Origin: Dehalococcoidia bacterium
Lineage (GTDB): Bacteria; Chloroflexota; Dehalococcoidia; Lucifugimonadales; JADFKI01
DNA: 64,000 bases
Assembly (NCBI GenBank): GCA_963422525.1
Contig: OY730226.1
Coordinates: 1,982,881-2,046,880 of the forward strand
Reading direction: 5' to 3'
The notes under the pieces were generated by a model. That model did not search any database, was not told where the DNA came from, and was given only the letters and a program-made list of their open reading frames with translations. Below, in pieces: positions 5,567 through 33,382 of this stretch. Numbering within the stretch: position 1 is the stretch's first letter; every line of letters starts with the position of its first letter. A program made the position numbers and the translations under genes.

Positions 5567-7141
5567 ATGTCTCAGAGAATGGTTGTTCGCAAGAAGGTAG
5601 AAAACACGCTCAAGGACCTCCAAGAGAGGCGGGAGCGGGCGCGTCAGGGCGGTGGGCAGCGCCGCATCGAGGCGCAGCGACGTCGTGGCAAGCTCACGGC
5701 GCGCGAACGCATCGATATGCTCTTTGACGCCGGCAGCTTCCAAGAGATGGACGCCTTCGCACAGCATCGCGCGACCGAGTTCGGTCTTGCCGAGGAGCGA
5801 CCGCTTGGCGATGCTGTAGTCACCGGCTACGGCAAGGTGAACGGGCGGCTGACTTTCGTGTACTCCCAAGATTTCACCGTTCTCGGCGGCTCACTTTCCG
5901 AAGTGGTGGGCAAGAAGATATGCAAGGTGATGGACCTGGCTGCGAACGGCGGCGCGCCTGTGGTGGGCCTCATAGACTCCGGCGGCGCGCGGATTCAAGA
6001 AGGCGTGCTCAGCCTCGCCGGATATGCGGACATCTTCACGCGCAATGTACGATCGTCGGGTGTCATACCCCAGATTTCCGTCATTCTGGGGCCTGCCGCC
6101 GGAGGTGCGACATACTCCCCTGCCCTGACGGACTTCATCTTCATGGTCAAAGGCATCGGGCAGATGTACATCACGGGGCCGGATGTCATCAGAGCGGTTA
6201 CTGGCGAACAGGTTACGCACGAGGAGCTGGGCGGCGCTGAAAGTCACGCCTCGCGCAGCGGCGTAGCCCACTTTTCGCCGGAGTCCGAAGAGGATTGCTT
6301 CCAGCAGGTGCGGCGACTGCTCGCCTTCTTGCCCCAGAACAACATGGAAGACCCTCCCCGCCTCGACGCTTTCGACGACCCGATGCGTAAGACAGCCGAA
6401 CTGCTGGATGTCATTCCAAGTAGGACGAACGCGCCTTACGACATGCTGCGAGTTATTGCGAGCGTCGTGGATGACGGCGATTTCCTGCAGGTGCATGAGA
6501 GGTTTGCGCGCAACATAATCGTCGGGTTTGGACGAATGGACGGCAAGCCGATTGGCGTTGTGGCGCAACAACCTTCGCATCTGGCGGGCGCGCTGGATAT
6601 TGACGCATCAAGCAAGGCGGCTAGGTTCGTGCGCTTTTGCGACGCCTTCAACATACCTGTGCTCTCCTTCGTCGATGTACCAGGATTCATGCCGGGCACA
6701 AACCAAGAGTATGGCGGCATCATAAGACACGGAGCGAAGCTGATATACGCCTACGCAGAGGCGAGCGTGCCCAAGATAAGCGTGCTCACGCGCAAGGCGT
6801 ATGGCGGCGCGTACATCGTTATGAGCAGCAAGGGCTTGCTTGGAGATATTAACTACGCATGGCCGACCGCCGAGATAGCGGTGATGGGCGCCGAGGGCGC
6901 CGTCAACATAATCTATCGGAGTGAGATAGCCTCGGCTGAAGATCCGGAAGCGATGCGTTCGCAACTGGCGGGAGATTATCGCGACAAGCTGGTGAACCCG
7001 TATGTAGCCGCCGCGCACGGGCTGATTGATGATGTGATAGACCCGGCTGACACCAGAATCAAGGTCATAAGCGCGCTGGAGATGCTCACCAACAAACGGG
7101 AGACGCTGCCACAACGCAAGCACGGGAGCATACCACTCTGA
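5567..7141 (+). CDS. acyl-CoA carboxyltransferase, 12S/propionyl-CoA carboxylase beta-type subunit
   Basis: Full-length carboxyltransferase with two crotonase-like halves (GGSLSEVVGKKI, DSGGARIQEG, VLTRKAYGGAYIVM). A GGAGG SD lies 6 nt upstream of the ATG at 5567; the ORF-track start 5531 is an upstream alternative codon. Confidence 0.9.
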   Translation: MSQRMVVRKKVENTLKDLQERRERARQGGGQRRIEAQRRRGKLTARERIDMLFDAGSFQEMDAFAQHRATEFGLAEERPLGDAVVTGYGKVNGRLTFVYSQDFTVLGGSLSEVVGKKICKVMDLAANGGAPVVGLIDSGGARIQEGVLSLAGYADIFTRNVRSSGVIPQISVILGPAAGGATYSPALTDFIFMVKGIGQMYITGPDVIRAVTGEQVTHEELGGAESHASRSGVAHFSPESEEDCFQQVRRLLAFLPQNNMEDPPRLDAFDDPMRKTAELLDVIPSRTNAPYDMLRVIASVVDDGDFLQVHERFARNIIVGFGRMDGKPIGVVAQQPSHLAGALDIDASSKAARFVRFCDAFNIPVLSFVDVPGFMPGTNQEYGGIIRHGAKLIYAYAEASVPKISVLTRKAYGGAYIVMSSKGLLGDINYAWPTAEIAVMGAEGAVNIIYRSEIASAEDPEAMRSQLAGDYRDKLVNPYVAAAHGLIDDVIDPADTRIKVISALEMLTNKRETLPQRKHGSIPL

Positions 7142-7350
7142 TGGCGGCGGGCGAAGGCGTGTTCATAACGAAACGGATAGCCGCCGTGGTTGCCGCTGTA
7201 CATGCGTATCTCGATGCTGAAAGGCGCATCGAACGGAGCCGTTCCTCGGATGTGGGAGCGTGGCGCTCGTCGATATTGCCCGGCAGCAACGATGGCGTCG
7301 CTAGCCGCCGCTCCTGGACAGGCAGAGACGCGGCAATTAGCGCAAGATAG
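7141..7350 (+). CDS. small protein between the carboxyltransferase genes (possible accessory subunit)
   Basis: Its ATG overlaps the 12S stop (TGATG). The IAAVVAAVHAYL motif resembles small subunits or linkers of biotin-dependent decarboxylase/carboxylase complexes. It fits exactly between the two large genes. Confidence 0.35.
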   Translation: MAAGEGVFITKRIAAVVAAVHAYLDAERRIERSRSSDVGAWRSSILPGSNDGVASRRSWTGRDAAISAR

Positions 7351-7357
7351 GTCTATT

Positions 7358-9250
7358 ATGTCCATAAATCCGGTAAAGATAACCGACACGACGCTGAGAG
7401 ACGGCCATCAGAGCCTGATGGCAACCCGCCTGCGCCTTGAGGACATGGTGGACATCGCGCCTGCTATGGATGCGGTGGGCTTTGACGCGATGGAAGTATG
7501 GGGCGGCGCGACTTTCGACGCTGCAACGCGGTTCTTGGGTGAAGACCCATGGGAACGACTTCGCACCCTCAAGCGCCTCATACCGAATACGCCGCTGTCC
7601 ATGCTGCTGCGTGGACAATCGCTTGTGGGCTATCGCAATTACGCTGACGATGTAGTTGATGCATTTGTTGCGCGGTCGGCAGAGGTCGGCATCGACATCT
7701 TCAGGGTCTTCGACGCCCTGAACGATGAGCGCAATGTATTGAGGTCGTCGCAGGCGGTCAAGCGCGCAGGCAAGCATTTGCAGCTCGCGATATGCTATTC
7801 GGTAACGGAAGAGGGCAAGCTCGGCGGGCCATATTACAACTTGGATTACTATCTGTCCAAAGCGAAACTGTTCGAGGAGATGGGCGCGGATAGCATCTGC
7901 ATTAAGGACATGGGTGGTCTGCTTGCTCCTTACGACGCCTACGAACTGGTAACCGCCTTGAATGAGGCGGTGAACATTCCGCTCCAGCTGCACTGCCATT
8001 ACACGAGCGGAATGGCGGCGATGAGCGCGCTGAAAGCGATTGAAGCAGGCGTTGACGGCGTGGATACCTGTTGCGCGCCATTTGCGCTGCGGACAGCGCA
8101 GCCGGCAATCGAGCCTTTGCTGGTTACACTTCGCGGCAGCGACAGGGAGCTGCGTATCGACCTTGAGAAGATACTGGAAATTGGCGACTACTTTGAAGGC
8201 GTACTGCCCAAATATCAGCGCTACATGGAAAGCGCGCGCGTCTCGGTGATAGACGCTAGGGCGCTCGACCACCAGATACCCGGCGGAATGATGAGCAACC
8301 TCGTGTCGCAGCTGCGCGAGGCGGGCGCTATCGACAGGCTGACTGAAGTGCTGGAAGAGGTACCGCATACGCGCAGGGATTTGGGCTATCCGCCGCTGGT
8401 TACGCCGATGAGCCAGATGGCAGGCGCACAGGCGGTCAACAATGTCCTGTTCGGACGCTATGCAATGGTTACGGGCGCGGTCAAAGAGTATGTCGCCGGC
8501 AAGTTCGGCGCTCCGCCCGGTGAGATTTCGCCTGAACTCCGCAGCAAGGCGCTCGGAAGCGCTTCGGCTTCTGATGCGGATGCACCCGGCGCCTTGCCGC
8601 CGGAAATGGACGCAGCGCGCGATGCGGTCAAGCACATCACGACTGACATTGAGGATGCGCTGACATACGCCCTGTATCCGACGACGGGCATGAAGTTCCT
8701 GCGCATCAAGCACGGCTTGGACCCGATGCCGGATGACATGAAGCCGATTGAGATGGCGAAGAAACCAGACGACACGCCGACTTCGACGGACTCAGAGCCG
8801 CCTAAAAGGGCGCGCAGTCGCCAAGCGCGCAGTTTCAGCGTGTATGTAGGCGGAGAGCGGTTTGAGGTTGAGGTTGAGCCGAACGCTCCCCAAGACAGAA
8901 TGCGGGTTAGCTCCGCGGCGTCAATTTCACCGCCGCCGACCGAGTCCGCAGCCCCGCGGGCCTCATACGCACAGACCCAAGGGCAGCAGCCGACGGCAGG
9001 CACAGCGGCTGAGGCATCACCAGACGAAGCCCTCATTACTGCTCCTATACCAGGCGTCGTGCTGCGATATGAGGTGAAGGTTGGACAGAGAGTCGACGAG
9101 GGTGACTCCATCGTGGTGCTTGAGGCGATGAAAATGGAGAACACGCTACCATCCCCAGCAACCGGAACAGTCAAGGCGCTGGTCGCCGACATAGGCGCAA
9201 CAGTTGCCAAAGACGCGGCGCTCGCTATAATCTCGTTAGGTACAGACTAG
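7358..9250 (+). CDS. 5S-type carboxyltransferase (oxaloacetate decarboxylase alpha / PycB-like) fused to a C-terminal biotinyl carrier domain
   Basis: ITDTTLRDGHQS TIM-barrel start, a Pro/Ser/Thr/Ala-rich linker, then a biotinyl domain with the EAMKMEN biotinylation motif. The start is taken at MSINPVK (7358), not at the 7190 extension that overlaps the small ORF. Confidence 0.9.
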   Translation: MSINPVKITDTTLRDGHQSLMATRLRLEDMVDIAPAMDAVGFDAMEVWGGATFDAATRFLGEDPWERLRTLKRLIPNTPLSMLLRGQSLVGYRNYADDVVDAFVARSAEVGIDIFRVFDALNDERNVLRSSQAVKRAGKHLQLAICYSVTEEGKLGGPYYNLDYYLSKAKLFEEMGADSICIKDMGGLLAPYDAYELVTALNEAVNIPLQLHCHYTSGMAAMSALKAIEAGVDGVDTCCAPFALRTAQPAIEPLLVTLRGSDRELRIDLEKILEIGDYFEGVLPKYQRYMESARVSVIDARALDHQIPGGMMSNLVSQLREAGAIDRLTEVLEEVPHTRRDLGYPPLVTPMSQMAGAQAVNNVLFGRYAMVTGAVKEYVAGKFGAPPGEISPELRSKALGSASASDADAPGALPPEMDAARDAVKHITTDIEDALTYALYPTTGMKFLRIKHGLDPMPDDMKPIEMAKKPDDTPTSTDSEPPKRARSRQARSFSVYVGGERFEVEVEPNAPQDRMRVSSAASISPPPTESAAPRASYAQTQGQQPTAGTAAEASPDEALITAPIPGVVLRYEVKVGQRVDEGDSIVVLEAMKMENTLPSPATGTVKALVADIGATVAKDAALAIISLGTD

Positions 9251-10734: not shown

Positions 10735-11667
10735 ATGCGAAGCAAAGTAACGGTTGTTGGAGCGGGAAATGTGGGTGCGACCGCAGCGCAGCGCATTTTC
10801 GACAGGGGTTACGCCGATGTTACCCTGGTTGACATCGTAGAGGGACTTCCGCAGGGCAAGGCGCTTGACATCCAAGAATCGGGCCCCGTGCTAGGTTCGG
10901 ATGCCTCTATCATCGGCAGCAACGGCTATGACGAGACGGCGGGCTCGGACATCGTGGTCATCACTTCCGGTATCGCCCGCAGGCCCGGCATGAGCCGCGA
11001 CGACCTGCTGCTGACGAACATGAGAATCGTGAGCGGCGTTGTCGAAGAGGTGGTCAAGCATTCGCCGGACTGCATCATCCTGCCTGTGACGAATCCACTG
11101 GACGCCATGGCGCAGCGCGCGTATCAGGTCAGCGGCTTTCCGAAGAGCCGCGTAGTGGGGATGGCGGGCATTCTGGATACGGCGCGCTTTCGGACATTCC
11201 TCGCCGAAGAGCTAAGCGTATCCGTAAGCTCCATAGAAGCCTATGTACTTGGAGGGCATGGGGACACGATGGTTCCGGTCGTAGGCAGCACGACCGTTGG
11301 CGGCATACCGGTCGCCAACTTAATCGAAGCAGAACGCCTTGAAGAAATTGTGCAGCGCACAAGGGACGGCGGCGCTGAGATTATCAACCACCTGAAGACT
11401 GGCAGCGCCTACTATGCGCCATCGGCGTCCATCGTTCAGATGGTCGAGGCTATCCTATTCGACAAGAACGAAATCCTACCCTGCACCGCCCTGCTCGAAG
11501 GCGAATACGGCATTAACGACCTGTTCGTAGGCGTTCCCGTAAAGCTCGGCGGCAGCGGGATCGTGGAGGTAGTCGAGTTCGACCTGAACGACGATGAGTC
11601 GGCGGCGCTAAAGCGTTCCGCCGACGCTGTGCAGGAGCTCGTGGATGTGATGGCGTCCGCCGAGTAG
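10735..11667 (+). CDS. mdh: malate dehydrogenase (LDH-like MDH)
   Basis: [13 protein letters not shown] Rossmann motif, [16 protein letters not shown], and GGHGDTMVP catalytic His region. Confidence 0.95.
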
Positions 11668-11723
11668 CGACATCGGCATGCGCTCATCACATGCCGATGC
11701 ATTGGCGAACGGGTGAACTCTAT

Positions 11724-11900
11724 ATGGCGACTGAAGAGCAGATACGGATAGTGATGAACAGCCTGGCGGACTTGCCGCCTTGCCCGGAGTGCGGTGTGCG
11801 GGTGCGCTTCGGCGACCTTGAGTGCCCGCGCTGCGGAGCGGACATTTACGACGACCTAAAGGCATGGGCGGAGCGGCTGATTGATGAGGTGTGCCGGTAG
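11724..11900 (+). CDS. small zinc-ribbon protein
   Basis: CPECG..N12..CPRCG pair of CxxC knuckles. The start is uncertain (11691 or 11724). Confidence 0.4.
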   Translation: MATEEQIRIVMNSLADLPPCPECGVRVRFGDLECPRCGADIYDDLKAWAERLIDEVCR

Positions 11901-12010
11901 CGTCTGCTCATCTGTTGCTCAGCATACTACTGCTTCGTCAGAATGCGAGTGCTAGTGCTTTTATCTCTGTTGCTGATTGCGGCGAAGCCGTCGTGGATGG
12001 TATCCCGGGG

Positions 12011-13738
12011 CTATCGATATTCCAAAGTGAGCGTGAAGTCCCCGGCATTTTCCGGTTCGTATGTCGTCGCCTCGATGGTGTAGTCGCCGGCGGCAAGGGT
12101 ATTCGCTATGCGCGAGTTCCTGTCCAATCCACTGAAGTCGTCGTTCTCGTGCAGCGCTTCGCCGTCTTTGCCCGCGCCTTCCAACAGGCGGAGGTATGTG
12201 TCCTGTTCGGAAGTGAGAGTGATGACTACATCCGCTCCCGCATCCAGCGTGAAGATGTAGAAGCGCGCATAGCGAACTTCGCGGGCGCCGTTGTCCAGCG
12301 CCTTCTCGGACAGGCAGTCGCTACTCCAGCTGCCGTTGACGCTTCCACTATCTATCGTCTGCACGCAATCATCCGTGGGAGCCTCCGGTTCGGGGGTTGC
12401 CGTTAGCTGAGGTGTACTGGTGGGAATGGGCGGTTGAGTCGTCGGTGTTGGCGTTACCGTCGGAATTGGCGTCGGCGTGGGTGTCGCCTGTGGAATTGTT
12501 CTTTCTTCCAGAGTCGCTAGTCTGCCATCCAACACTGCTATAAGCCCTTGCAACGCTGCCACAAGTTCTTCCAGTAAGCTCAACCTGTTTAGGACTTCAT
12601 CATCGGCAGGCACGGGCGTTGGCGTAGCGGTTGGATGCGGCGCTGGCCTGATACTAGAACGTCCGCCCGGCCAGCCGTATGGGATTTCACCGGCTGCCAA
12701 GGCTGCTTTGATGCTTGCTTCCGCCTCAGCCGTTACCCATTCGCCCCATACATCGGGGTTGCTGTTCATCCACCAGATAGCAGTAGCCTCAGTATCAGCG
12801 TCAGGATTATCCGCGCCCCACCTAACGACTGCCTTGTATATGTCGACATTGAAGTCCCACTTTCGCAGCACATTGATAACATCAGGCGCTGCCGCCGGCA
12901 GGTCCGGATAGACCGCTATCAGGACGGTAGCGTCCTGATACGCGCAAGCCTTTGTGGTGAACCAGCACTGATCACTGTACGCAGGTTCCTCCAAGCGCAC
13001 CAAGTCAAGCTGAAGCGCCGGGTCGTTCGTGCCCCACTGATAGCCCAACCACGGCTCTTTGCGCTCGTATGCGCCGTACAGGTCGGCGTTCAATGCCGCA
13101 CCATCGCCAGGGTTGACAATCTCAACATGGTCGGAGAGGCCATAGCCCTCTACTTGCGCGGCATTCACCTCTTCACAAGCCCAGTCGATGACACAAGACA
13201 CGAGACGCGCCTTGTCCCCGGTTTCCGCCGTCTTGAACAGGTCTTTGTACTGCTGCTCTTTCAAGTCCTCAACACTGTCCAGTTCCGGGTACTGCTCTTG
13301 CAGATACTTGGGGATGACAAATGCCGACTGCCAGTCCTTTCCTAGGCTCTGTCCCAGGGATAGCACAGCGCCCTCGGCTCTGGCTTCATTCCACGCCTCG
13401 TTCTGGTTAGGCAGCCAGATCTCCATCAGCACATGCGTGTCGCCCCTGCGCAGCCCTTGGAACAACTGCAGCGTAGCGCCGAACTTCACATCTGTCGGAT
13501 AGCCGTAGCCCTTCTCCACTATGTACTGAGCGATGCGATTCTGAAGCAGTGCGCTCGACCAGTTCAAGTCACCGAAAATGATGGTCTGTTTAGTCGCCTG
13601 ATTGTCTTGAGACGCAGGTTCACCGACCTGATGATTGCTGGCTTGAACGCCAGCGCTCTGCAATCCCATTATTGCGGCGAATAGCAAGAAAATTACCGTT
13701 ACGAAGGACAGCAAGCCAATGGCTCGTCTTTGATTCAA
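12011..13738 (-). CDS. secreted/anchored glycine-betaine-type substrate-binding protein fused via Pro/Thr linkers to a C-terminal PPC-like beta-sandwich domain
   Basis: N-terminal hydrophobic anchor. OpuAC/ProX-like region (IIFGDLNWSSALLQNRIAQYIVEKGYGYP.., EIWLPNQ). Two TPTPTP-type linkers flank a short coiled segment. The C-terminal ~110 aa resemble a pre-peptidase C-terminal domain (DTYLRLL..DDFSG..DYTIEATTYE). Confidence 0.7.
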   Translation of the reverse strand: MNQRRAIGLLSFVTVIFLLFAAIMGLQSAGVQASNHQVGEPASQDNQATKQTIIFGDLNWSSALLQNRIAQYIVEKGYGYPTDVKFGATLQLFQGLRRGDTHVLMEIWLPNQNEAWNEARAEGAVLSLGQSLGKDWQSAFVIPKYLQEQYPELDSVEDLKEQQYKDLFKTAETGDKARLVSCVIDWACEEVNAAQVEGYGLSDHVEIVNPGDGAALNADLYGAYERKEPWLGYQWGTNDPALQLDLVRLEEPAYSDQCWFTTKACAYQDATVLIAVYPDLPAAAPDVINVLRKWDFNVDIYKAVVRWGADNPDADTEATAIWWMNSNPDVWGEWVTAEAEASIKAALAAGEIPYGWPGGRSSIRPAPHPTATPTPVPADDEVLNRLSLLEELVAALQGLIAVLDGRLATLEERTIPQATPTPTPIPTVTPTPTTQPPIPTSTPQLTATPEPEAPTDDCVQTIDSGSVNGSWSSDCLSEKALDNGAREVRYARFYIFTLDAGADVVITLTSEQDTYLRLLEGAGKDGEALHENDDFSGLDRNSRIANTLAAGDYTIEATTYEPENAGDFTLTLEYR

Positions 13739-13987
13739 CTTTTTACTCCAATGCTACGAGATGAGATCTTCATTTACAGACTTCAGCAAACTTAGGGTTT
13801 TGTGAGGATTAGACAATACTAGAGATTTTCTATCACCGGCGATCAATCGCCGTCAGGGAGCAGGGTATTTCACTGCTTCACTCAGTGTCACAAATTATGG
13901 TGTTCAATCGGTGTCTGTCAAAAGTGGTTCGACAGGTTCACTATAAACGGCATTGGTATGATTAAGCAAAAACCAAAAGCCCTCGAA

Positions 13988-14075
13988 TCAGGGCGAGACG
14001 CCGATGGTAAAGAGCATCTTGCGAGTTGAAACGATGCGCTTGTTGAAACCACAAGACAATGCCCATCATTGACCC
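13988..14075 (-). pseudogene. relic copy of the 3' end of the CCG-domain sdh subunit gene
   Basis: 13988-14049 aligns by eye to 14910-14971 at ~84% identity. It encodes FNKRIVSTRKMLFTIGVSP* versus the true C-terminus LNKHIISTRKMLSTIGVSP*. A 21-nt gap follows, then weaker similarity. Confidence 0.6.
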
Positions 14076-14242
14076 GCGCCGCGCGTAGGATAGCGTAATA
14101 GAACGCTAATCGCAATGATGAATGGAGACTATCTCGCTCCTTTTCTCAAGCGCCGTTGTACGATGCGCCGCGCCGGATTTGTACGCTTCCAGGCGCCAAA
14201 TCACTGCGCCCTAGCGTAAGTGTGGTATGCACTGTTCCTACT

Positions 14243-14534
14243 ATGAGAACCATCTCAAAGAAGCTACTTAGAGAGTTCTGGGAATGCCACTCTGACACGG
14301 CCGTTCCGCTCAACGATTGGCACAAAGCGGTGAAAAGGGAAGACTGGGCTTCTACGACTACACTGACAGCCAACCATCCTAACGCCCGCATTATCGGCAA
14401 CAGCAGGGCAGTGTTCGACATCAGGGGCAATCGATATAGGCTGGTGGCGCGAATCAACTATCAGTACAAGATAGTGTACATTCGCTTCATCGGCACACAC
14501 GGAATATGACCGCATAGACGCGGAGAGAGTTTAG
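14243..14534 (+). pseudogene. higB: HigB-family (RelE-fold) toxin with C-terminal frameshift
   Basis: MRTISKKLLREFWE..WHKAVKREDW..NRYRLVARINYQYKIVYIRFIGTH matches the HigB_toxin family. The ORF stops at 14509 (..GTHGI*). The canonical tail EYDRIDAERV* continues in another frame to TAG 14532-14534, 2 nt before the higA ATG. Confidence 0.75.
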
Positions 14535-14536
14535 AA

Positions 14537-14906
14537 ATGGTTGCCGTCAATCCCATCAGAACTGAGGAAGACTACGAAGCTGCGCTCGCCAGAGTGGATG
14601 ACATCTTCGAAGCGCAACCCAACACTCCTGAAGGCGATGAGCTTGATGTCCTCACTGACCTTATAGTGGCATATGAGGACAAGCATTATCCTACCGGTCC
14701 CCCTAGTCTAATCGGAGCGATAGAGTTCTGCATAGAGCAGCGCGGACTGACACAGGACGACCTGATACCTATGATTGGCAGCCGGCAGAAGATCGCGGAA
14801 GCGCTTGTCAGGCAAGCGCGACATCACTATGCCGATGGCTAGAGCGCTGCACAAGCGATTAGGAATCCCTGCCGAAGGGCTGCTGCAGGAGCCGCCCGCT
14901 CGCTAA
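14537..14906 (+). pseudogene. higA: HigA-family HTH antitoxin, frameshifted within the HTH domain
   Basis: The N-terminus (IRTEEDYEAALARVDDIFEA..) and LTQDDLIPMIGSRQKIAE match HigA. The annotated frame ends at 14842. The +1 frame from ~14808 reads SGKRDITMPMARALHKRLGIPAEGLLQEPPAR* (stop 14904-14906), which is the canonical HigA C-terminus. One extra base lies near 14807. Confidence 0.75.
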
Positions 14907-14909
14907 TCT

Positions 14910-15800
14910 TTACGGCGAGACGCCGATGGTGGACAGCATCTTGCGGGTTGAGATGATGTGCTTGTTGAGACGCATGGCGGCGGGCTCTATCCCTAGCGCC
15001 AAGCCTATCATCTGCGGCAGGTGCATAATCGGCAGGTCGATTGGCTGCTGCGCCTGCTTTGCCGCCTGCGGCTGGTAGCCGTCGAGGTTGAGGTGGCAGA
15101 GCGGGCATGGCGTGACCATGGCGTCCGCTCCCCTGCCCTTGGCGTCGAGAGTGTGATTGGAGACCATCTTCATGGAATTAGTTTGGTTGATAGTCAAGAT
15201 GGGGAAGCCGCAGCAGAGGGTCTTGCCCGGAAAGTCAACGACGGTTGCGCCGACGGCTTCGATGACCTGCTCCAGTGCGTCGGAGCGATCAGGATTTTCC
15301 GCAAAGCCGAGCGATGACGAGGGGCGCACCAGATAGCAGCCATAGAAGGGTGCCGCTTTGAAGCCGGTGAGAGGACGCACAACCATCGACTTGAGCTTGT
15401 CGATGCCTATGTCTTCTACGATAATCCAAAGCAGGTGCTTCGGGTCCGCCGTCCCCATATACTCCAAGCCCTCCTCCGCAAGGTCGGTGTTGACCTGCGA
15501 TAGATATTCGGCGTCGGATGTGAGGCGCTGATTTGCCTGTGACATCACCCCTTGGCATGTGCTGCAAATCGTCAGCAAGGGCAGGCCGGAGCGTTCGGCG
15601 AGCGCGAAGTTGCGCGCGTTCAGCGTATCGCCAAGCCGCTGGTTCTTCTCTTGCAGCACGCCCGCGCCTGTGCAGGATGCGCTCTGCATCGCCGCCGCAT
15701 CAAGATCGACGCCCAACTTGCGGCACACCTCTATCGTGGAGTTGTAAAGTTCGGGGGCGGCGCCCTGCGCCACACAGCCCGGATAAAAAGCGTATCTCAT
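14910..15800 (-). CDS. CCG-domain (HdrB-like) subunit of type E-like succinate dehydrogenase/fumarate reductase
   Basis: Two cysteine-rich CCG-type motifs (CSTCQGV.., CCGFP.., PCPLCHLNL). Its start overlaps the sdhB stop (ATGA). Confidence 0.8.
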   Translation of the reverse strand: MRYAFYPGCVAQGAAPELYNSTIEVCRKLGVDLDAAAMQSASCTGAGVLQEKNQRLGDTLNARNFALAERSGLPLLTICSTCQGVMSQANQRLTSDAEYLSQVNTDLAEEGLEYMGTADPKHLLWIIVEDIGIDKLKSMVVRPLTGFKAAPFYGCYLVRPSSSLGFAENPDRSDALEQVIEAVGATVVDFPGKTLCCGFPILTINQTNSMKMVSNHTLDAKGRGADAMVTPCPLCHLNLDGYQPQAAKQAQQPIDLPIMHLPQMIGLALGIEPAAMRLNKHIISTRKMLSTIGVSP

Positions 15801-16750
15801 TTTTTGCTTTCAACCTTCTCAAATATGCGTCGCACGTTCTCTGCGCCTGGGCGCTTCTTGTGGACAAGCGGGGGCACTTTGCCGACCTTGAATGAGCGCG
15901 CGGCGACTGGGATGAGCTTTATCATTTCCTTGATGTTCGTCTTGCCGTAGGTGTTGACGACAAGACTCGTCTCGTCCAGCCAGCCGCTGTGCTCTACCGA
16001 ATTGGCGAACGCTTCGGCATGGCGCGCGCCGTTCGTGTTGACGAAGCCGGCATCGATAGCCTTGTCACGCAAAGACATGATGCGCTCCATAGGCGCAACA
16101 CCCTTCGGGCATACCTCAACGCACTGCATGCAGCGCGTGCAGTCCCATATACCGCCGTACTCGTTAAGACTGCCCAGCCGCGCGGCATCGGCGTTATCGC
16201 GGGGGTCTGCGACGAAGCGGTAAGATTTTGCGAGCGCCGCAGGACCTACAAAGTTCTTGTCCACCTCGAGCGATGTGCAGTCCGACACGCACGCCCCGCA
16301 CATAATGCAGCTCATCACGCCTGCCAGATGCACCATATCTTCGTTGGGGGCGATATGCTCGGCTTCAGGTTCGGGTCCGCTATACTGCATCCAAGGTTCG
16401 ATCGCGCGAACCTTGTCCCAGTGAAGCGCCATGTCCGTTACCAGATCTTTAACGACGGGCATATTCCCCATGGGCTCGACTGTGATAGGCGCATCACCGC
16501 GCATCGCATCGATGACCTTCGTGTTGCAGGCTAGGCCTGCCTGTCCGTTAATCCGCATCCCACAAGAGCCACAGATTGCGCTGCGACATGAGCACCTGAG
16601 CGTCAGGCTGCCGTCCACCTCTTCGCGTATGCGTATCAGTCCGTCAAGCACGGTGGACGACTCGTCCATCTCAAGAGTGTACGACTGAAAATGCGGGGCT
16701 TTTCCACCCTCTTCAGGGTTGAACCGCTTGACGCTAAATGTTACTTCCAT
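15797..16750 (-). CDS. sdhB: succinate dehydrogenase/fumarate reductase iron-sulfur subunit
   Basis: 2Fe-2S (CSCRSAICGSCGMRING), 4Fe-4S (CIMCGACVSDC) and 3Fe-4S (CTRCMQCVEVCPKG) cluster motifs. Confidence 0.9.
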   Translation of the reverse strand: MEVTFSVKRFNPEEGGKAPHFQSYTLEMDESSTVLDGLIRIREEVDGSLTLRCSCRSAICGSCGMRINGQAGLACNTKVIDAMRGDAPITVEPMGNMPVVKDLVTDMALHWDKVRAIEPWMQYSGPEPEAEHIAPNEDMVHLAGVMSCIMCGACVSDCTSLEVDKNFVGPAALAKSYRFVADPRDNADAARLGSLNEYGGIWDCTRCMQCVEVCPKGVAPMERIMSLRDKAIDAGFVNTNGARHAEAFANSVEHSGWLDETSLVVNTYGKTNIKEMIKLIPVAARSFKVGKVPPLVHKKRPGAENVRRIFEKVESKK

Positions 16751-16850
16751 ATATTCGTCCTGTAGCTAGTGGGTCAGTATGTCGGTTAGTCTGTGGATGA
16801 GTTAGGAACATCTTATTGAATAATGACACCGCGCAATGCAACTATTTTAG

Positions 16851-16950
16851 ATTCCTCGCTTCGGTCGGAATGACAAATTGAAGAGCTCGGTCGGAACGAC
16901 AGGGCGAGGAGCTCGGTCAGAGTGACAAGGTGGCAGAGCTTGGAATGACA
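16851..16950. repeat. four imperfect tandem ~26-27 nt repeats in the sdhA-sdhB intergenic region
   Basis: Core GCTYGGTCRGARYGACA recurs starting at 16858, 16885, 16911 and 16938 (last copy shortened). The first copy is embedded in a hairpin-capable GATTCCTCGCTTCGGTCGGAATGAC element. Confidence 0.6.
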
Positions 16951-16961
16951 ATATGCATAAG

Positions 16962-18641
16962 TCAGTAGCTTCGTACTTGCGGCTGCCAGTCGGTTATGAC
17001 GACAGGCAGGTAATCCACCTGCGGCCCATCATCGGTGCGCTTCACCAGAATATGACGCAGCCAGTTTTCATCATCTCTGTCAGGCGCGTCGGTGCGGGTA
17101 TGCGCTCCCCTGCTCTCGTTGCGCTCAATCGCCGAGAGCGCAATCGCCTCCGCGCAGTCAGTCATGAAGCCGAGTTCGAGTGTGAACAACAAGTTGGTAT
17201 TGAAGGTTTTGCCCTTATCTGGCACCGCCACGTTGTTGTAGCGCTCGCGCAGGCTGCGCAGTTCCGCAAGCGCCGTCTCCATCCCGTTCTGTTCACGATA
17301 CACGGCGAGGTGTTTGTTCATCGTGTCACCCATCTCTCGGCGAATCTTGCCGAACATCTCACCGTCGCTGTCATTGTCTAGCAGACGCCGAATATGCAGG
17401 CGGTCGGGCTCCGACGCCGCATCCGTTACCCCTGAGTTATGCACCTTCGACGCCGCCATTTGCGCCGCATGCTCGCCGGAGCGTCTGCCGAACACCAGCG
17501 TATCGAGCAGCGAGTTCGCGCCCAGGCGGTTGCCTCCGTGCACGCTTACGCACGCTGCTTCGCCTGCCGCATATAGCCCCGCAATCTCAGTCTGCCCGTC
17601 CACATCAGTCTTGATGCCCCCCATCTGGTAGTGCATGCCGGGACGGATGGGGATAGGTTCGCGCAGCAGGTCCACATTCGCGAAGTCCCGCCCTATCTCG
17701 CGTATCTGGCTCAGACGCTCGTTGATGACGGCTTCCCCAAGATGGCGAACATCCAGCATCACACAGCCGTCTATACCCCTGCCCTCGTTGATTTCCGTCT
17801 GCTCGGCGCGTGATACCACATCACGCGAGGCGAGCTCCATCATGTTCGGGGCGTATCGTTCCATGAAACGCTCGCCATCGGCGTTCAGCAGATATGCCCC
17901 TTCGCCGCGCGCGCCCTCAGTGATGAGCACACCGCTCCCTTTCAGCGTCGTCGGGTGGTACTGCACCATCTCCATGTCCATCAGGGACGCCCCCGCCCTG
18001 TAGGCTGCAGACATGCCGTCTCCGGTGCATATCAGGGCGTTGGTGCTCGGCTCGAAGACGCGTCCAAGCCCGCCGGACGCTACGATGACAGCCTTGGAAC
18101 GCACGACATGAATTTCGCCGCTCCGAATCTCCATTATGACTGCGCCCGCGCACTCGCCATCCTCAACGATGAGCGACAGCAGAAACCACTCTTCATAGAT
18201 GCGGACACCAGCCTTCATCACCTGCTCATAGAGCACATGAAGAAGCGCTTGTCCCGTAAAGTCAGACACGAAGAAGGTGCGAGCCTGACGCTGCCCGCCG
18301 AATGCGCGCGTGCCAAGCCGTCCCTCATCATCCCGATTGAAGATGACGCCCATGTGTTCCATGTCGATAACTTCGGCGCCGGCCTCACGACACATAACTG
18401 CGATTGCGTCCTGATCTCCGAGATAGTCGCTCCCCTTAATAGTATCGTATGCGTGCTCCCGCCAGTCGTCGCCCCTATCCGTAAGGGCAGCGTTGATGCC
18501 CCCTTGCGCTGCGTTCGAGTGGCTGCGCACAGGATGCACTTTTGTTACGACAGCGACATTCGCGCCCGCCGCCACCGCCGCAAGAGCGGCACGCATGCCA
18601 GCCAAGCCCGCGCCGATTATAAGCACATCATGATCAAACAT
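16962..18641 (-). CDS. sdhA: succinate dehydrogenase/fumarate reductase flavoprotein subunit
   Basis: [19 protein letters not shown] motif, the covalent-FAD histidine context [13 protein letters not shown], and active-site HPT and RLGANSL blocks. Confidence 0.95.
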
Positions 18642-18882
18642 ACTTGATACCTCAAGTGAAATAATGTCCGCTAGAAGTTATCACATTGCGCCTGCTTTCA
18701 CAACATAAATGGACGATAAGGCAACACACTATACAAGATACAATATACGCATCCTACGCTGCGCACGCTCGACGAATCCGCTGCGAACCACAGCCCGCAT
18801 CCTCAACTGCCTAGATGGCCCCCCGCAGGTAGCGCAAAAATCTGGCAACAACGGCGTATTCGTAGTAACATGGTTGGCATGA

Positions 18883-18958
18883 GCCAACGTAGCTCAGTCG
18901 GTAGAGCAGCTGTTTCGTAAACAGCAGGTCGGTGGTTCGAGTCCACTCGTTGGCTCCA
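18883..18958 (+). tRNA. tRNA-Thr (anticodon CGU), CCA encoded
   Basis: Manual cloverleaf: acceptor GCCAACG/CGTTGGC, D arm GCTC-AGTCGGTA-GAGC, anticodon arm GCTGT-TTCGTAA-ACAGC, T arm GGTGG-TTCGAGT-CCACT, discriminator T, then CCA. Confidence 0.95.
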
Positions 18959-19057
18959 TCAGACGCACAGAAAGGGGAACCATAGAACGAAGCCCCAGAC
19001 TTAAAGAAAGGTGAGTCTCGTCCAGGAAGCGCTTGTGACAAGGCAACCGGAAGAGCC

Positions 19058-21106
19058 ATGGAAAAAACACTAGTCACCACCATCAAGGTCTTACTTGCCT
19101 TATCGCTTGCCATGCCTTTCGTCGTCATGGGTGGCTCATTGCCGGAGGCGTTGTACCCCTACATTCTAGGCAAGGCGTTGTATTTCCGTCTTGCCGTAGA
19201 AATCGCCTTTGCCGCTTGGCTCTTCCTCATCATCCGCTTTCCGGAGTACCGCCTCCCTAGTTCCTGGCTCCTACTCGCCATCGTCGCATATCTTGTTGTC
19301 GCACTTGCGGCATCCTTCGCCGGCGTCAGCATCTCGCGCAGCATATGGTCAAACTACGAGCGCATGCAGGGGTGGATCTCCCTCGCGCACTACACCGCTT
19401 TCGCTCTAATGCTCGCCTCCGTCTTGCGCACCTTCCGACATTGGCAGGGCGTCCTCAACATCAATCTCCTTGCCAGCTTCGGCGTGGGTTTGCTTAGCAT
19501 TTACAGCATTTCAACCGGGAGCGAATCGCGCATTAGCGTCACCTTTGGGAACCCGTCTTTTCTGGCGACCTACGTCCTAGTCAACGCTTTTATCGCCGCC
19601 GCTTTTCTTGCGCATTCACTTGTGGCGCCCCGTGAACAGCCGACGCGAAGGTCAAGGTCAAGATCCCGGGCGCGGCGCAACTCGCCTAATATACTTTCTC
19701 GAACGCTTATGCGCTCATTCTGGGTGGCGGTACTGTGTCTTAACCTGCTGGCGCTGAACTACACCGGAACCAGGGGAGCGACGGTAGGGCTTGTAGCCGG
19801 AATAGTCTGTGTCCTAGTCGGCTGCGTTGTATGGGGTGAGAGACGGTACTTGAGGCTAGCCTGCGCGTCGACGCTCATCGGCATTCTAGCGCTTGGAGCG
19901 GCGACCCTCTTGCTGATAGGCAGCCCGATACTGGACAGGTTAGGGCAGTTCAGCCCGACGTTGCAGCGCGCCATAGACATCACGCCGGAAACCTTCTCGT
20001 TACGAAGCAGGATAGACTCCGCCGAGATTGGCTTGGAAGCGTTCGGCGCCAAGCCTTTATTAGGCTGGGGACCAGAGAACTACTACGCCGCCTACGACAG
20101 ATACATCGACGGCAAGGCCGTCCTCAATCTTGAACGATTCGACCAAGCGCATAACCGCATCGTGGAGGAACTCGTTACAACCGGCGTCATCGGGCTCGCA
20201 ACGTACTTAGCGCTCTGGCTTTGCCTCGGATGGCTCTTCATCACCAAAACTCGAAGGCTTCCTCTCCATGGCCGTCTGTTCACGATAGTTATAGGCGGAG
20301 CATTTGTCGCATATTTCGTACAGAACCTATTCTTGTTCGATACTCCGACTGCCGCCGTGCAGATCTACCTGCTGATAGGATTCGCGATCTATCTGGGCAG
20401 CGTGCCCGCCGCATCCGCATTCGACGCCAAGTGGACGCCTCAGACCGCCATTCGTCCCCATGAGGGAGTCATCCGCCGCATCGAGACCGCAGTTACAGGA
20501 ACGACCATGTCCCAAGTAGCCGTCGCCGCCGTGATTGCCGTGCCTGCGCTCTGGTTATGCTATCTTCTGGTGGTCGCACCTTACATCGGTGCGACAAACA
20601 CATTCGCCGCACTCACCGGAGATCGAACGGCCGAAGAGCGATTCTCCGCCTACGATACGGCGGTATCCACTTCGCCGGGATACGCAAACGAAACCGTGCG
20701 CCTCTTCATTAACTTCGTCATCGACCACCGAGAAAGCCTGTCTTTCGACGAGCGAGCGACTGCCATCGAGATGACAAGACGCGATGTCGCAGCCGGACTA
20801 CAAAGAGAACCTTTGGAGTGGAGGTTCCATATGTCGATGGCGCAGCTCTACAACCGAGAATCGGGAAGATCCCCCGAACTCGTGCGCCTAGCGCGACAGC
20901 ATACCGACGCAGCGGCGGCGATTGCTCCCGGACGCATCGAGGTGCTGCAACTCAAGGTGCAACAACATATCTATGAAGGCAATGCGGAAGCGGCAGTCAA
21001 TCTGATAGACCACTACTTTGAGGAGTCTGAACATTTTCTTGAAAAGGACTCCACAGTCTATCGTCGCCTCGAGAAGATGCGCAAACTCATCGTCGAGGAA
21101 CAATAA
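19058..21106 (+). CDS. O-antigen ligase/polymerase (Wzy_C) family membrane protein with soluble helical-repeat C-terminal domain
   Basis: More than 10 TM helices. AHNRIVEELVTTGVIGL matches the Wzy_C signature (H-N..e.l.e.G..G). The C-terminal ~200 aa are helical/TPR-like. Confidence 0.7.
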   Translation: MEKTLVTTIKVLLALSLAMPFVVMGGSLPEALYPYILGKALYFRLAVEIAFAAWLFLIIRFPEYRLPSSWLLLAIVAYLVVALAASFAGVSISRSIWSNYERMQGWISLAHYTAFALMLASVLRTFRHWQGVLNINLLASFGVGLLSIYSISTGSESRISVTFGNPSFLATYVLVNAFIAAAFLAHSLVAPREQPTRRSRSRSRARRNSPNILSRTLMRSFWVAVLCLNLLALNYTGTRGATVGLVAGIVCVLVGCVVWGERRYLRLACASTLIGILALGAATLLLIGSPILDRLGQFSPTLQRAIDITPETFSLRSRIDSAEIGLEAFGAKPLLGWGPENYYAAYDRYIDGKAVLNLERFDQAHNRIVEELVTTGVIGLATYLALWLCLGWLFITKTRRLPLHGRLFTIVIGGAFVAYFVQNLFLFDTPTAAVQIYLLIGFAIYLGSVPAASAFDAKWTPQTAIRPHEGVIRRIETAVTGTTMSQVAVAAVIAVPALWLCYLLVVAPYIGATNTFAALTGDRTAEERFSAYDTAVSTSPGYANETVRLFINFVIDHRESLSFDERATAIEMTRRDVAAGLQREPLEWRFHMSMAQLYNRESGRSPELVRLARQHTDAAAAIAPGRIEVLQLKVQQHIYEGNAEAAVNLIDHYFEESEHFLEKDSTVYRRLEKMRKLIVEEQ

Positions 21107-30495: not shown

Positions 30496-33039
30496 CTAGG
30501 CATTATACACGCCATCCAAGTTCGCTAACACGCCTGAAAACTCATCCTCGCTGAACACAAGCTTAAAAGTGCCTTTCGCAGGACCTTCTCTAACCGTCAT
30601 ATTTCCGTAATTGTTGTAAGCGTTTTGAAGAGTTTCCAGCACGCGTTCCTTGTAATCGGTGTCAGGGCTGTCGCGCAGATGCGCGCCTTTCGTCTCGAAC
30701 ACCAGCACATGCGGCTTTCCGTCGGTTTCGCCGCCCATAGCGACGAAGTCCGGCCAGATGCGATCTCGCTTCCAGCCGCGCAGATAGTAATCACCCTGCT
30801 GCCGCACGGCGACTCGATGCCACCAACGCAGCGCTTTATGCTCGTCGAGGTAACGCGCGAAACTGCGCTCAAGATTGGAGTCGAACTGCTGAGTGTACAC
30901 AGGCTCGAACAGGCTAAGCTGTAGCGCCGACGTCCCGCCTTTTCCCGTCATCAACCCAGCATCTACAGGCGCAGGTATGTCGTAGCGCTCCACCATGCGG
31001 AAGTTAGGTTTGCCGTCTTCCAATTTTAAGTCAAAGCGGATTTCGCCCCGGCTAAGTTTGCCGCGAAATGCCCGTTCAGCCTGCTTTTCCAGCGCATCGG
31101 TTACATAGTCGCGCAACGCAAACGCCAGATATGAACGCTTGTCGTAGATCTCATCATCAGCGTCGCCGCCGGCGCGCAGTTTTTCAACCAACTTCTGCGC
31201 GATGCGCGCCGCCTGCCACGGGTTCGGCACAACATCGGACAAACGGCGCGCAAACCATGTTATCTGCACCGTCTTGTCAATATACAACTCGCGGTCGGCG
31301 TGAAACATCGGCAGAGCGTCTCCCACATCAACCGTCGCCGACTGCCACTTGGCACCGTCCCCAAAGCTGTTTTGCAGATCTGAAACCTCAATAGCGCTCC
31401 AGTCTATGCTCGGCAGGATGTGACTCTGGTAATCCAACTCGCGCCATCCGCCATTATCCTCGTGCATCACCTTCGGCAAAAATATATCCGCGTTCTTGAA
31501 CCGCTCACGCCGCTTTACGGTAACTCGCTGAAAATCATCCGCATTGCTGGTTACCGCGTCGCCCAATCCGTCCAACCCTTCCTGCTCCAACCCCAATTTG
31601 ACATGCTCGACGGCGACGCCCACCTGTGTGTTGTGGCAATACACATAGCACTGGTCAAGGGGCTCTCGTCTTGTGCGCTGGGCGTGCGGCTGACGCATCA
31701 CGCGTCCCACAAGCTGCGTTATGGCGGTTTTCGCACGCGTGTTGTCCAGCATCACCAGCAAGTACGCGAATGGGCAGTCCCATCCCTCTTTCAGCGCGTC
31801 CTTAGTGATTATCCAGCGCACCGGCGAAAACTCCGACAGCAAGTCCAGTCCTGCGATTTCGTCCGTCTGAGACGATTTGACCTTCACGGCTTCAGCGGCA
31901 ACGCCCAAGTTCTGGATCAAGTAGTCACGCGCATCCTCGGAGTGAATGCGGTCTCCGTCGCGCTGATTCTTGCCGGTGCGTTCCACGCGCACTACGGCGA
32001 TAGGGCGAATGTACCTTCCTTCGCTCTGTTGCAACGACTGCGCCTCATCGTTAAGCCGTTCAAGCTCATCGTGCGCCTGCTGCAGCGTGTAATGCCAATC
32101 GGCGTTAGTGAAGGATGTCACCTGCACCGGCAGTTTTATCATCTCCTCCTGTTTCAATTCTACGCCGCTGATGTCCACCAGCAGGTTGCTAATTCCCCGA
32201 TTGGGCGTAGCGCTCAATTCAATGACGAGACGAGGATCGATACGATTGACGGAGCGCGCGAACTCTCTTTGCGTCTTATCGGATTTTCCATAAGCCTTGT
32301 GCGCCTCGTCGAGAATGACTACGGGACGCAGCATTTTGAACACATTGAATAGGCTGTGCTTTACAGGTCCGCCCTGTGAAGATCGATCCAGATCCGGATA
32401 ATCCTTTAGAAGGCTGCCATCCCCAAGCAAGTCATCGCTATCCGGGAACAGCGTGGGATAGCGCCCCGAATCTCGGAACATTCGCAGAAACTCTCTGCCC
32501 TTCTGACGATTGGCGGCCGGCAACATCAGCAGCATCACGCACATATAGTTAGCAGTGTCCGCCAGCGTGAACGGCTCGTCCTTTTCCAGAAGTTTCACTC
32601 GACCGCCGCTGCCGCGCTCCAGCATCTGCCGATAGGGATGTTCTCGATTCCAGAGGGCGGCTTTGGTCTGCTCGTATATGGCGCGACTCGGAGTTATCCA
32701 CAGCGTAAGCCCCGTCGGACGGTTCAGTCGTTCCAGCGTCGCAGCGGCGAGCAGTGTCTTGCCTCCGCCGGTCGGCACTTTAAGGCATGCATGCGGAATA
32801 GGACGACCGGCTTCATCGGTGCGGCTCACATATTCGCCGGCGCTCTCCGCAACGCCGCCGGAATCCGCCAATCGTTTCCATGCGCTTTTGGGATAGTTAC
32901 GCACATCATCCGGGACGTCCAGGCCGGCGGCTTGCAAGGCTGTTACGGCGGTTTTCGCTTGCAGCCGCGCCGTCTCCAGCGCGTCGCGCCAGCGCGTGAA
33001 AGATTCCAAGGCAGCGAGCTGATACTCTTTCAGTTCCAT
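30496..33039 (-). CDS. res: type III-like restriction enzyme Res subunit (SF2 DEAH helicase with C-terminal PD-(D/E)xK nuclease)
   Basis: Helicase motifs VPTGGGKT (I), VILDEAHKA (II), ELSATP (III) and QLVGRVMRQP (VI). The C-terminus carries WPDFVAM...VLVFETKG, a PD...ExK nuclease motif. Confidence 0.85.
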   Translation of the reverse strand: MELKEYQLAALESFTRWRDALETARLQAKTAVTALQAAGLDVPDDVRNYPKSAWKRLADSGGVAESAGEYVSRTDEAGRPIPHACLKVPTGGGKTLLAAATLERLNRPTGLTLWITPSRAIYEQTKAALWNREHPYRQMLERGSGGRVKLLEKDEPFTLADTANYMCVMLLMLPAANRQKGREFLRMFRDSGRYPTLFPDSDDLLGDGSLLKDYPDLDRSSQGGPVKHSLFNVFKMLRPVVILDEAHKAYGKSDKTQREFARSVNRIDPRLVIELSATPNRGISNLLVDISGVELKQEEMIKLPVQVTSFTNADWHYTLQQAHDELERLNDEAQSLQQSEGRYIRPIAVVRVERTGKNQRDGDRIHSEDARDYLIQNLGVAAEAVKVKSSQTDEIAGLDLLSEFSPVRWIITKDALKEGWDCPFAYLLVMLDNTRAKTAITQLVGRVMRQPHAQRTRREPLDQCYVYCHNTQVGVAVEHVKLGLEQEGLDGLGDAVTSNADDFQRVTVKRRERFKNADIFLPKVMHEDNGGWRELDYQSHILPSIDWSAIEVSDLQNSFGDGAKWQSATVDVGDALPMFHADRELYIDKTVQITWFARRLSDVVPNPWQAARIAQKLVEKLRAGGDADDEIYDKRSYLAFALRDYVTDALEKQAERAFRGKLSRGEIRFDLKLEDGKPNFRMVERYDIPAPVDAGLMTGKGGTSALQLSLFEPVYTQQFDSNLERSFARYLDEHKALRWWHRVAVRQQGDYYLRGWKRDRIWPDFVAMGGETDGKPHVLVFETKGAHLRDSPDTDYKERVLETLQNAYNNYGNMTVREGPAKGTFKLVFSEDEFSGVLANLDGVYNA

Positions 33040-33051
33040 CGTCTATCACTC

Positions 33052-33276: not shown

Positions 33277-33280
33277 AAGC

Positions 33281-33370: not shown

Positions 33371-33382
33371 CGTCTATCGCTC

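Follow-up and report, generated by a model that had tools for sequence, protein, structure and literature searches.

The window analyzed here is a stretch of 64,000 nucleotides (nt) from contig OY730226.1 of a Dehalococcoidia bacterium, in which the end of an sdhC-like gene, the third gene of an sdhA-sdhB-sdhC-like operon (succinate dehydrogenase/fumarate reductase), is present twice as a direct repeat. One copy is the functional 3' end of the gene, the other is a decaying relic, and the toxin-antitoxin (TA) genes higB and higA lie between the two. The reading that we favor, with moderate confidence, is that one sdhC allele had its 3' end displaced and that the relic is this end, left by recombination with closely related Dehalococcoidia DNA in a hotspot downstream of the sdh operon. 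Positions are given in the numbering of this 64-kb window, and L-numbers (L001, L081, L116 etc.) designate the comparison loci or contigs that were retrieved.

The end of the sdhC-like gene is repeated

The product of the sdhC-like gene, a CCG-domain protein of 296 amino acids (aa), has thousands of homologues of the same length, the closest of which (88-95% identity) come from metagenome-assembled genomes (MAGs) of Dehalococcoidia. On the minus strand, copy 1 of the repeat corresponds to the last 19-20 codons plus TAA of this gene, and copy 2 translates as FNKRIVSTRKMLFTIGVSP, followed by TGA, so that both copies terminate in a stop codon at an equal position. The C-terminus specified by copy 1 is canonical when compared with 120 homologues and is identical in a sister genome (L081, described below); the target gene has thus been kept intact.

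The two copies form a gap-free direct repeat in which 50 of 58 nt are identical (86%; 13992-14049 versus 14914-14971), they have identical runs of 14-17 nt in common, and they are spaced 922 nt apart. When the 3' end of the gene (14880-15100, 221 nt) is used as a blastn query against the window, there is a single significant second match (E 1.3e-14), with the next-best matches at E ~0.5. The repeat has a local alignment score of 76, whereas 500 shuffles averaged 18.4 and never exceeded 28. An earlier note on this DNA had described the repeat as ~84% identical over slightly wider coordinates (13988-14049 and 14910-14971), and the formal alignment bears this out with statistical support (52 of 62 nt); the translations that it quoted, ending in LNKHIISTRKMLSTIGVSP and FNKRIVSTRKMLFTIGVSP, are both correct. 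Its claim of a further, weaker similarity up to ~14075, after a 21-nt gap, was not upheld, as neither gapped nor ungapped alignments detect any similarity 5' of ~14049-14053. The segment between the copies does contain what had been described, namely only higB, higA, and the 193 nt upstream of higB, with both genes convergent with the sdh gene. Furthermore, the same architecture had been seen at a second TA locus of the window, hicBA, and that locus indeed has a 63-nt repeat, 87% identical, in the same layout.

The upstream copy had been taken for a relic of the sdhC-like 3' end. This holds, because it is nearest to the window's own functional end (50 of 58 nt), while its best agreement with the functional ends of the other 80 species is 43 of 58 nt. 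A tandem duplication followed by deletion has been rejected, since the homology ends exactly at the stop codon and the sequence past the relic is unrelated to higA. A functional RNA is likewise not supported: Rfam gives only a tRNA-Thr within 11000-19500, and the relic evolves faster than its flanks.

The sister genome L081 has the same relic

L081 (contig_14 of ENA ERZ21742353) was assembled from another sample and shares 96.7% identity with the window across 11 kb. Its gene order, sdhABC, higA, higB, relic, OpuAC, mdh, and icd, matches that of the window, and its higA (122 aa) and higB (126 aa) are intact. The relics of the two genomes differ at 5 of 58 positions, four of the changes being non-synonymous and one synonymous, whereas the flanks are ~95% identical and the functional end is 100% identical. 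This disparity argues that the relic is unconstrained and decaying. The event that formed it would predate the split between the window and L081, and would have been followed by neutral decay of the relic and, in the window, by frameshifts in the hig genes.

Because the window comes from a MAG, and because strain mixtures with different hotspot contents clearly exist, it might be supposed that the structure is a chimeric join of two strain haplotypes made during metagenome assembly. However, the independent assembly of L081 shows the same layout, at 3.3% divergence and with five private differences in the relic, and the relics of two further contigs (L083 and L084, see below), one a TARA scaffold and the other a Logan assembly, are identical to each other. 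An assembly artefact is therefore extremely improbable and has been set aside.

On its far side, the relic runs into a terminator-like hairpin, which begins within the relic's last codons and is presumably the old end of the sdh operon. Beyond the hairpin, a strong promoter-like site precedes a gene for an OpuAC substrate-binding protein with a C-terminal PPC domain. No OpuAC gene is present at this site in any of the 80 species representatives, and the protein has one 95% orthologue, found only in L081.

A variable hotspot downstream of the sdh operon

Empty sites, which the earlier note had suggested looking for, do exist, in seven related species. In these (L002, L003, L004, L006, L007, L009, and L013), the sdhC stop codon is followed after ~6-14 nt by a small zinc-ribbon open reading frame (ORF), and in L006, the stop codons of the two overlap. 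The ORF is a homologue of window 11724-11894, is convergent on sdhC, and is followed by mdh and icd; the OpuAC gene is missing from the empty site of these relatives as well. Compared with them, the window has ~3.0 kb of extra DNA (11901-14909), which comprises higA, higB, the relic, the terminator-like hairpin, the promoter-like site, and the OpuAC-PPC gene.

Other relatives have different contents at this position: higBA and a RelB-like antitoxin gene in L001; higA, remnants of higA and higB, and a 475-aa methyltransferase gene in L010; and a gene for a 756-aa secreted peptidase-like protein together with a RelB-like antitoxin gene in L012. Methyltransferase genes occur in the hotspot of L010, L083, and L085, always outside the bracket formed by the repeats. 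Given this variety, the site downstream of the sdh operon is a variable hotspot.

The pair higBA adjoins the sdhC stop codon in L001, L005, L010, L083, and L084, and in L082 and L085, it adjoins a relic of the sdhC end instead. Against any given relative, the window shows much the same identity in sdhB, sdhC, higA, mdh, and icd, and these genes rank the relatives alike (L081, then L010/L085, then the rest). Since the divergence of higA tracks that of these core genes, higBA appears to be an old resident of the hotspot and no recent arrival from a distant source. The proposal of an inserted 0.9-kb higBA cassette thus survives only in part. The relic of a gene end and the empty sites in relatives are in keeping with it, but higBA is a long-term resident and the extra DNA amounts to ~3.0 kb; furthermore, no relative was found that lacks just the 0.9-kb higBA segment. 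A second copy of the repeat was not detected in the 80 species-representative loci, which gave background scores only, and relics were found only in loci that had been recovered through HigA.

Independent relics in other genomes

The closest homologues of HigA (79-86% identity) all sit in the same hotspot of other contigs. In L083 and L084, the order is sdhC, higA, higB, a 35-nt relic, and a methyltransferase gene, and the bracket is the same as in the window. L082 has sdhC, a 746-aa cadherin/RCC1-like gene, a relic of ~60-77 nt, and higA. In L085, the functional end of sdhC (S1) is followed by an 87-nt fragment of a higA 3' end (H1), an 84-nt relic (S2), a higB/higA pair, an 81-nt relic (S3), and a full higA. 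The pair between S2 and S3 is a second, different one with a TIGR02607 antitoxin; S2 resembles the ends of more distant species, and S3 is 96% identical to S1.

At 97-98% identity, L010 and L085 are members of a single species and provide a comparison before and after an insertion. Relative to L010, L085 has an 878-nt insert, consisting of the foreign sdhC end S2 and the second higB/higA pair, between 168-nt repeats; the 168-nt segment is single-copy in L010 and duplicated in L085 (5286-5453 and 6332-6499). L010 has its own 100-nt diverged duplication inside higA (7089-7188 and 7274-7373). These different partial duplications at the sdhC/higA junction show that there is ongoing turnover within the species.

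All of the relics except S2 of L085 are nearest to the functional end of their own genome. Because the relics do not cluster together and resemble ordinary sdhC ends, the events that produced them were independent of each other; on the same grounds, the possibility that the relic is part of some other conserved element has been discarded. The 5' boundaries of the relics, relative to the gene end, lie at -35, -58/-62, ~-60 to -77, -81, and -84. The edge of the bracket on the higB side is no more constant. In the window, it lies 193 nt upstream of higB, and in L083, the distance is 27 nt; in the unrelated contig L116, the edge falls within higB itself, and in L085, the S1-S2 bracket encloses nothing but the 87-nt higA fragment. 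This variation in relic length (35-84 nt) and in the higB-side edges argues for illegitimate ends rather than for a discrete element.

It bears equally on the idea that DNA integrated site-specifically at an attB overlapping the 3' end of sdhC, the integrase having been lost or lying elsewhere and higBA being remnant cargo that carries a replacement gene end. Such elements characteristically bring in DNA that restores the 3' end of a gene and displaces the old end, insertions do recur at this one gene end, and the copies have identical runs of 14-17 nt. However, where a fixed core would be expected, the relics have 5' boundaries that range between -35 and -84. Nor is the insert fixed at its other end, which lies inside a gene in two cases, and the cargo can be as small as 87 nt. 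In addition, no integrase or transposase family is present among the Pfam matches of the called genes in L081-L085 or among the window ORFs that were scanned or inspected. Taken together, these results make integration of this kind quite improbable. An integron gene cassette, with intI and attI beside the array and attC sites at the cassette ends, finds no support either, given that no integrase was found and that the bounding repeats are homologous to the sdhC of their own genome and not to each other.

Among 45 distant higA loci from unrelated metagenomes, 3-4 have tight bracketing repeats, compared with 14 loose and ~1 tight among 345 control positions. This enrichment around distant higBA is no more than suggestive, since many of the contigs are short and the repeat of one (L097) is a terminator-like hairpin that may be coincidental. 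The clearest distant case is L116, with a 5'-truncated higB that adjoins a 52-nt relic; the relic derives from a gene that converges on higA and represents its 3' end.

The copies differ as two alleles might

An ancestral relic was reconstructed from the relics of the window and L081, with the functional end as outgroup. It reads FNKHIVSTRKMLSTIGVSP, followed by a stop codon, and differs from the functional end in six codons: four synonymous ones (including TAA/TGA), an I>V change, and the boundary codon. The same I>V variation in the sdhC tail occurs among real orthologues. In the L085 pair S1/S3, there are three differences, all of them synonymous, and at the hicBA locus, four of the seven codons that differ between the relic and the functional end are synonymous. 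Pooled over these three loci, 11 of 16 differing codons are synonymous, compared with ~25% expected (binomial P = 3e-4). Because the differences are mostly synonymous, we infer from the sequences that the two copies would once have been working ends of two alleles from closely related genomes, which were joined by recombination. A comparison of segment identities within sdhC gave no clear signal of a recombination breakpoint.

One position of the relics deserves separate mention. At an otherwise invariant His codon of the sdhC tail, CAC has changed to CGC in three independent relics (window 14030-14034, L082, and L085 6248-6331), and the relic of L081 retains CAC; the change may reflect recurrent mutation or conversion.

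The synonymous bias also bears on a rival explanation, a long duplication of the target on insertion, in which the last ~60 nt of the resident sdhC would have been duplicated (e.g., by repair of widely staggered breaks, as has been proposed for restriction-modification units) and the relic, at first identical to the other copy, would have diverged in place. The locus has the features published for such insertions: a repeat of more than 30 bp, an insert smaller than 20 kb, no mobility genes, and a single copy of the repeated sequence where the insert is missing (PMC2853133). The relic is nearest to the window's own functional end, and the L010/L085 pair, with its 168-nt repeat, looks like a classic case. 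However, decay in place would not be expected to leave a preserved stop codon and a predominance of synonymous differences; indeed, of the five changes that demonstrably arose in place, four are non-synonymous. Furthermore, the L085 insert begins with the foreign sdhC end S2, which is about as long as the sdhC part of the repeat, an arrangement that fits successive displacements better. We therefore consider target duplication an unlikely origin of the relic.

A model for the formation of the relic

Taken together, these observations have led to the reading stated at the outset, in which the relic is the displaced end of an allele. In this model, one end of the incoming DNA would be set by homologous recombination in a conserved flank, most likely within the sdh operon, and the other by an illegitimate joint that fell within the final ~60 nt of the sdhC already resident. 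The product would be a complete gene with the end of one allele and that allele's downstream DNA, followed by the last 19 codons and stop codon of the other allele, the terminator, and the downstream gene. No recombinase, fixed core, or fixed cassette end would take part. As for which segment came in, the functional end with higA, higB, and the 193 nt is somewhat the likelier newcomer, and the relic with the terminator and the OpuAC gene the likelier resident; this preference is by analogy with L082 and L085, in which the old end is still attached to its old neighbor higA. On this reading, what the locus preserves is a scar left by recombination in a hotspot. Two phenomena already described come closest to it (see the last section), and it is no new kind of element.

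Integration of a small circular molecule has also been weighed. In RecA-dependent Campbell integration, a looped-out circle, carrying an sdhC 3' fragment and the TA cassette, would re-integrate in a relative by a single crossover within 35-170 nt of homology. The repeat-flanked layout is the exact product of such a crossover, higA is always attached to an sdhC end, the allelic differences between the copies would suit a circle from another genome, and brackets recur around TA cassettes, including that of the unrelated contig L116. However, the first formation of the circle still requires an illegitimate joint, and the far edges differ from event to event (193 nt and 27 nt upstream of higB, or inside higB), one bracket being no more than an 87-nt higA fragment. 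In addition, 35-60 nt at ~90% identity is a poor substrate for RecA, and no circles have been observed. Only a minor share of the probability can be assigned to this process. The same low weight is given to a broader version of it, in which TA and restriction-modification (RM) addiction modules spread without an integrase among related genomes, using the 3' end of a neighboring gene as a portable homology arm for loop-out, transfer, and re-integration, with toxicity guarding the insert. If true, this would be a distinct form of mobility that depends on host recombination, and it would account for the brackets at the two TA loci of the window, at other sdhC sites, and in L116.

Several points weigh against the displaced-allele model. 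All six joints lie within the last 35-84 nt of sdhC, and three of them are at ~-77 to -84. We attribute this confinement to survival bias, since a joint past the stop codon would not give rise to a relic, and recombination soon removes long repeats; the alternative is a preferred joint region or mechanism at ~-77 to -84. The predicted parent, sdhC-terminator-OpuAC, was not found in the 80 species representatives, the 27 nt immediately downstream of the relic had 0 matches in a metagenome scan, and two OpuAC-PPC homologues (L086 and L087) are in contexts unrelated to sdh. The bias toward synonymous differences is significant only when the three loci are pooled; in the window alone, it is 4 of 6 and not significant. 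Furthermore, the functional end and the relic have the lineage-specific codons TCA ACC CGC AAG in common, for which the donor must have been very close or gene conversion must have played some part. The model also presupposes a putative uptake of DNA (e.g., by natural competence) by uncultured hosts. Finally, the association with TA genes is based on a handful of cases, and the L082 bracket is without TA genes and the S1-S2 bracket of L085 contains only a gene fragment.

As a speculation on that association, active addiction modules may penalize loop-out deletion between repeats, and brackets would then persist around TA cassettes. If so, the frameshifts in the window would mean that this protection has lapsed.

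The higBA pair of the window

The toxin gene higB comes first and the antitoxin gene higA second, and each carries a frameshift in the window. For higA, there is a 101-aa ORF at 14537-14842, and the rest of the gene is in the frame of 14775-14906. The higB ORF (14243-14509) ends in IGTHGI and a stop codon; the original end, EYDRIDAERV and a stop codon, is out of frame and extends up to 14535. Neither frameshift (at 14497 and ~14800) falls in a long homopolymer, and the 101-aa truncated HigA is identical to P0267, the recorded protein of a contig that is probably from the same source assembly. Searches for exact copies of the SdhC, HicB, and HicA proteins of the window, and of P0267, returned nothing on record and hence no relatives of the hicBA locus. 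Unless the frameshifts are sequencing errors, then, higA and higB of the window are pseudogenes, and annotators should be warned accordingly.

HigB matches Pfam HigB_toxin (PF09907, E 6e-24) over residues 21-86, a RelE-like domain, and the HigB of L081 matches solved HigB structures (E 7e-4). The intact 122-aa HigA of L081 aligns to the HigA structures 5IFG/5YCL of E. coli/Shigella (E 6e-8); it has no NCBIfam match, and the HigA fragments of the window have no Pfam match. In L081, the canonical ATG position of higB is AGG, and the called gene begins further upstream. The pair resembles HigBA of the E. coli type in having a HigB_toxin domain, the toxin gene first, and a C-terminal helix-turn-helix in the antitoxin that aligns to solved HigA structures; it differs in that both genes of the window are frameshifted, the intact copies being those of L081, L001, and L083.

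The hicBA locus and other features of the window

The coordinates of the features discussed are collected in Table 1. The hicBA genes lie downstream of a methyltransferase gene and before a res-like gene of 847 aa. Their repeat stops 6 nt short of the methyltransferase stop codon, and the frame of the relic runs for five more codons into a different tail.

Table 1. Features of the sdhC-higBA region and of the hicBA locus used for comparison
Feature	Position	Strand	Basis or remark
sdhA	16962-18641		Pfam FAD_binding_2 and Succ_DH_flav_C
sdhB	15797-16750		Pfam Fer2_3/Fer4
sdhC-like CCG-domain subunit gene	14910-15800	-	Pfam CCG, E 5e-26
Functional sdhC 3' end (repeat copy 1)	14910-14971	-	100% identical in L081
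higA antitoxin gene, frameshifted	14537-14906	+	+1 nt near 14800 relative to the intact L081 orthologue
higB toxin gene, frameshifted	14243-14535	+	2-nt deletion near 14497; Pfam HigB_toxin
higB upstream spacer, far edge of the bracketed segment	14050-14242	+	Homologue in L081 only among relatives
sdhC 3'-end relic (repeat copy 2), decaying	13988-14049	-	19 codons and TGA; alignments and comparison with L081
Terminator-like hairpin	13969-13998	-	GCCCTGATTCGAGGGC, then TTTTGGTTTT; hairpin 13994-13979, then T-run
Promoter-like site upstream of the OpuAC gene	13894-13921	-	TTGACA-16-CATAAT, 11/12
OpuAC substrate-binding protein gene, C-terminal PPC domain, 575 aa	12011-13738	-	Pfam
Small zinc-ribbon ORF, conserved distal border of the hotspot	11691-11900	+	Comparison with relatives
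hicBA comparison locus	33928-34559	-	63-nt repeat 33928-33990 / 34497-34559, 87% identical
Functional N6_N4 methyltransferase 3' end	34497-34559	-	
hicB	34215-34451	-	
hicA	33994-34215	-	
Relic of the methyltransferase end	33928-33990	-	

At the distal border of the sdhC hotspot, all relatives have a gene for a 341-aa membrane protein with a molybdopterin-oxidoreductase domain between the zinc-ribbon ORF and mdh (8451-9476 in L001, 9415-10440 in L010); the window (11668-11690) and L081 are without it. The zinc-ribbon ORF is 91% identical between the window and L081, compared with 97-99% for the flanking mdh and sdh genes, a difference suggestive of relaxed constraint or of one more small patch of recombination. 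The tRNA-Thr(CGT) gene (18883-18958) lies immediately upstream of the sdh operon, and no repeat of it was seen nearby.

Close to hicBA, a perfect (GGTC)53 tract (36053-36264, minus strand) separates an ATG at 36269 from the TTG at which the methyltransferase gene (34491-36032) starts. Read from the ATG, the frame continues across the tract and closes in a different phase from that of the methyltransferase. By analogy with phase-variable type III mod genes, gain or loss of one GGTC unit could switch expression of the methyltransferase. Beside the locus is a tandem duplication of ~331 nt (32962-33290 and 33293-33633, 90-94% identity), which takes in parts of two genes: ~78 nt from the start of the 847-aa res/helicase-like gene (30496-33039, minus strand) and, from a 148-aa ORF (33383-33829), the 3' part. 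In addition, 36594-39016 contains three tandem paralogous genes of 256-262 aa with a period of 814-826 nt and 86-88% identity between copies.

Comparison with known systems

Integrase-mediated insertion into a gene's 3' end, for which the element brings its own substitute, is exemplified by e14 and phage 21 in icd of E. coli and by islands that target tRNA genes. As in those cases, the gene is kept intact by a near-identical incoming 3' end, and the old end persists as a short pseudogene on the far side. However, at the sdhC locus, there is no integrase to be found and no fixed crossover; the inserts are only 0.09-0.9 kb long, and their distal ends are ragged.

The first of the two phenomena that come closest is insertion with long target duplication, which has been described for RM units without mobility genes and whose mechanism is unknown (Furuta, Abe & Kobayashi 2010, PMC2853133). 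There, too, a small module of the addiction type lies between long direct repeats of the flank (tens to hundreds of bp) with no transposase or integrase, the flank is single-copy in relatives without the insert, and some of the published repeats overlap the 3' ends of genes. However, the cargo here is a type II toxin-antitoxin pair with no R and M genes, and the host is an uncultured member of the Dehalococcoidia. Furthermore, the events recur at one gene end with varied cargo, and the copies look like diverged alleles. Nobusato et al. (2000) reportedly gave an earlier account of such insertions of RM units.

The second is the displacement of 3' ends in Rhs, contact-dependent inhibition (CDI), and type VI secretion system (T6SS) loci, which Jackson et al. 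(2009) are said to have treated for Rhs/CDI-type loci. Homology-facilitated illegitimate recombination (HFIR), or sequential displacement, is the model proposed for T6SS effector-immunity arrays and for the orphan 3' ends of Rhs/CDI (Kirchberger et al. 2017, PMC5361080). In both settings, a conserved 5' part of a gene serves as the anchor, the newest end is proximal, older ends are pushed distally, and no integrase is involved; serial displacement of this kind is seen in S1, S2, and S3 of L085. The difference is that the displaced end at the sdhC locus belongs to an equivalent allele of a housekeeping respiratory gene and not to a different toxin domain, and that only 35-84 nt of it are kept, with no coding role.

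How TA genes move without a mobility gene has been a long-standing loose end, and the sdhC locus offers an unusually complete natural comparative series from an uncultured marine or symbiont lineage: empty sites, the same-species before/after pair L010/L085, the sister genome L081, and several independent relics at one gene end. As far as the sequences can tell, this series speaks for recombination among related genomes, with scars of alleles left behind, and not for a dedicated element. The short 3'-end relics could also be used as datable markers of hotspot turnover in MAGs. The pattern extends the "insertion with long target duplication" of RM units to TA cassettes, and the synonymous-bias test, if upheld, would help to decide what the nature of that pattern is.

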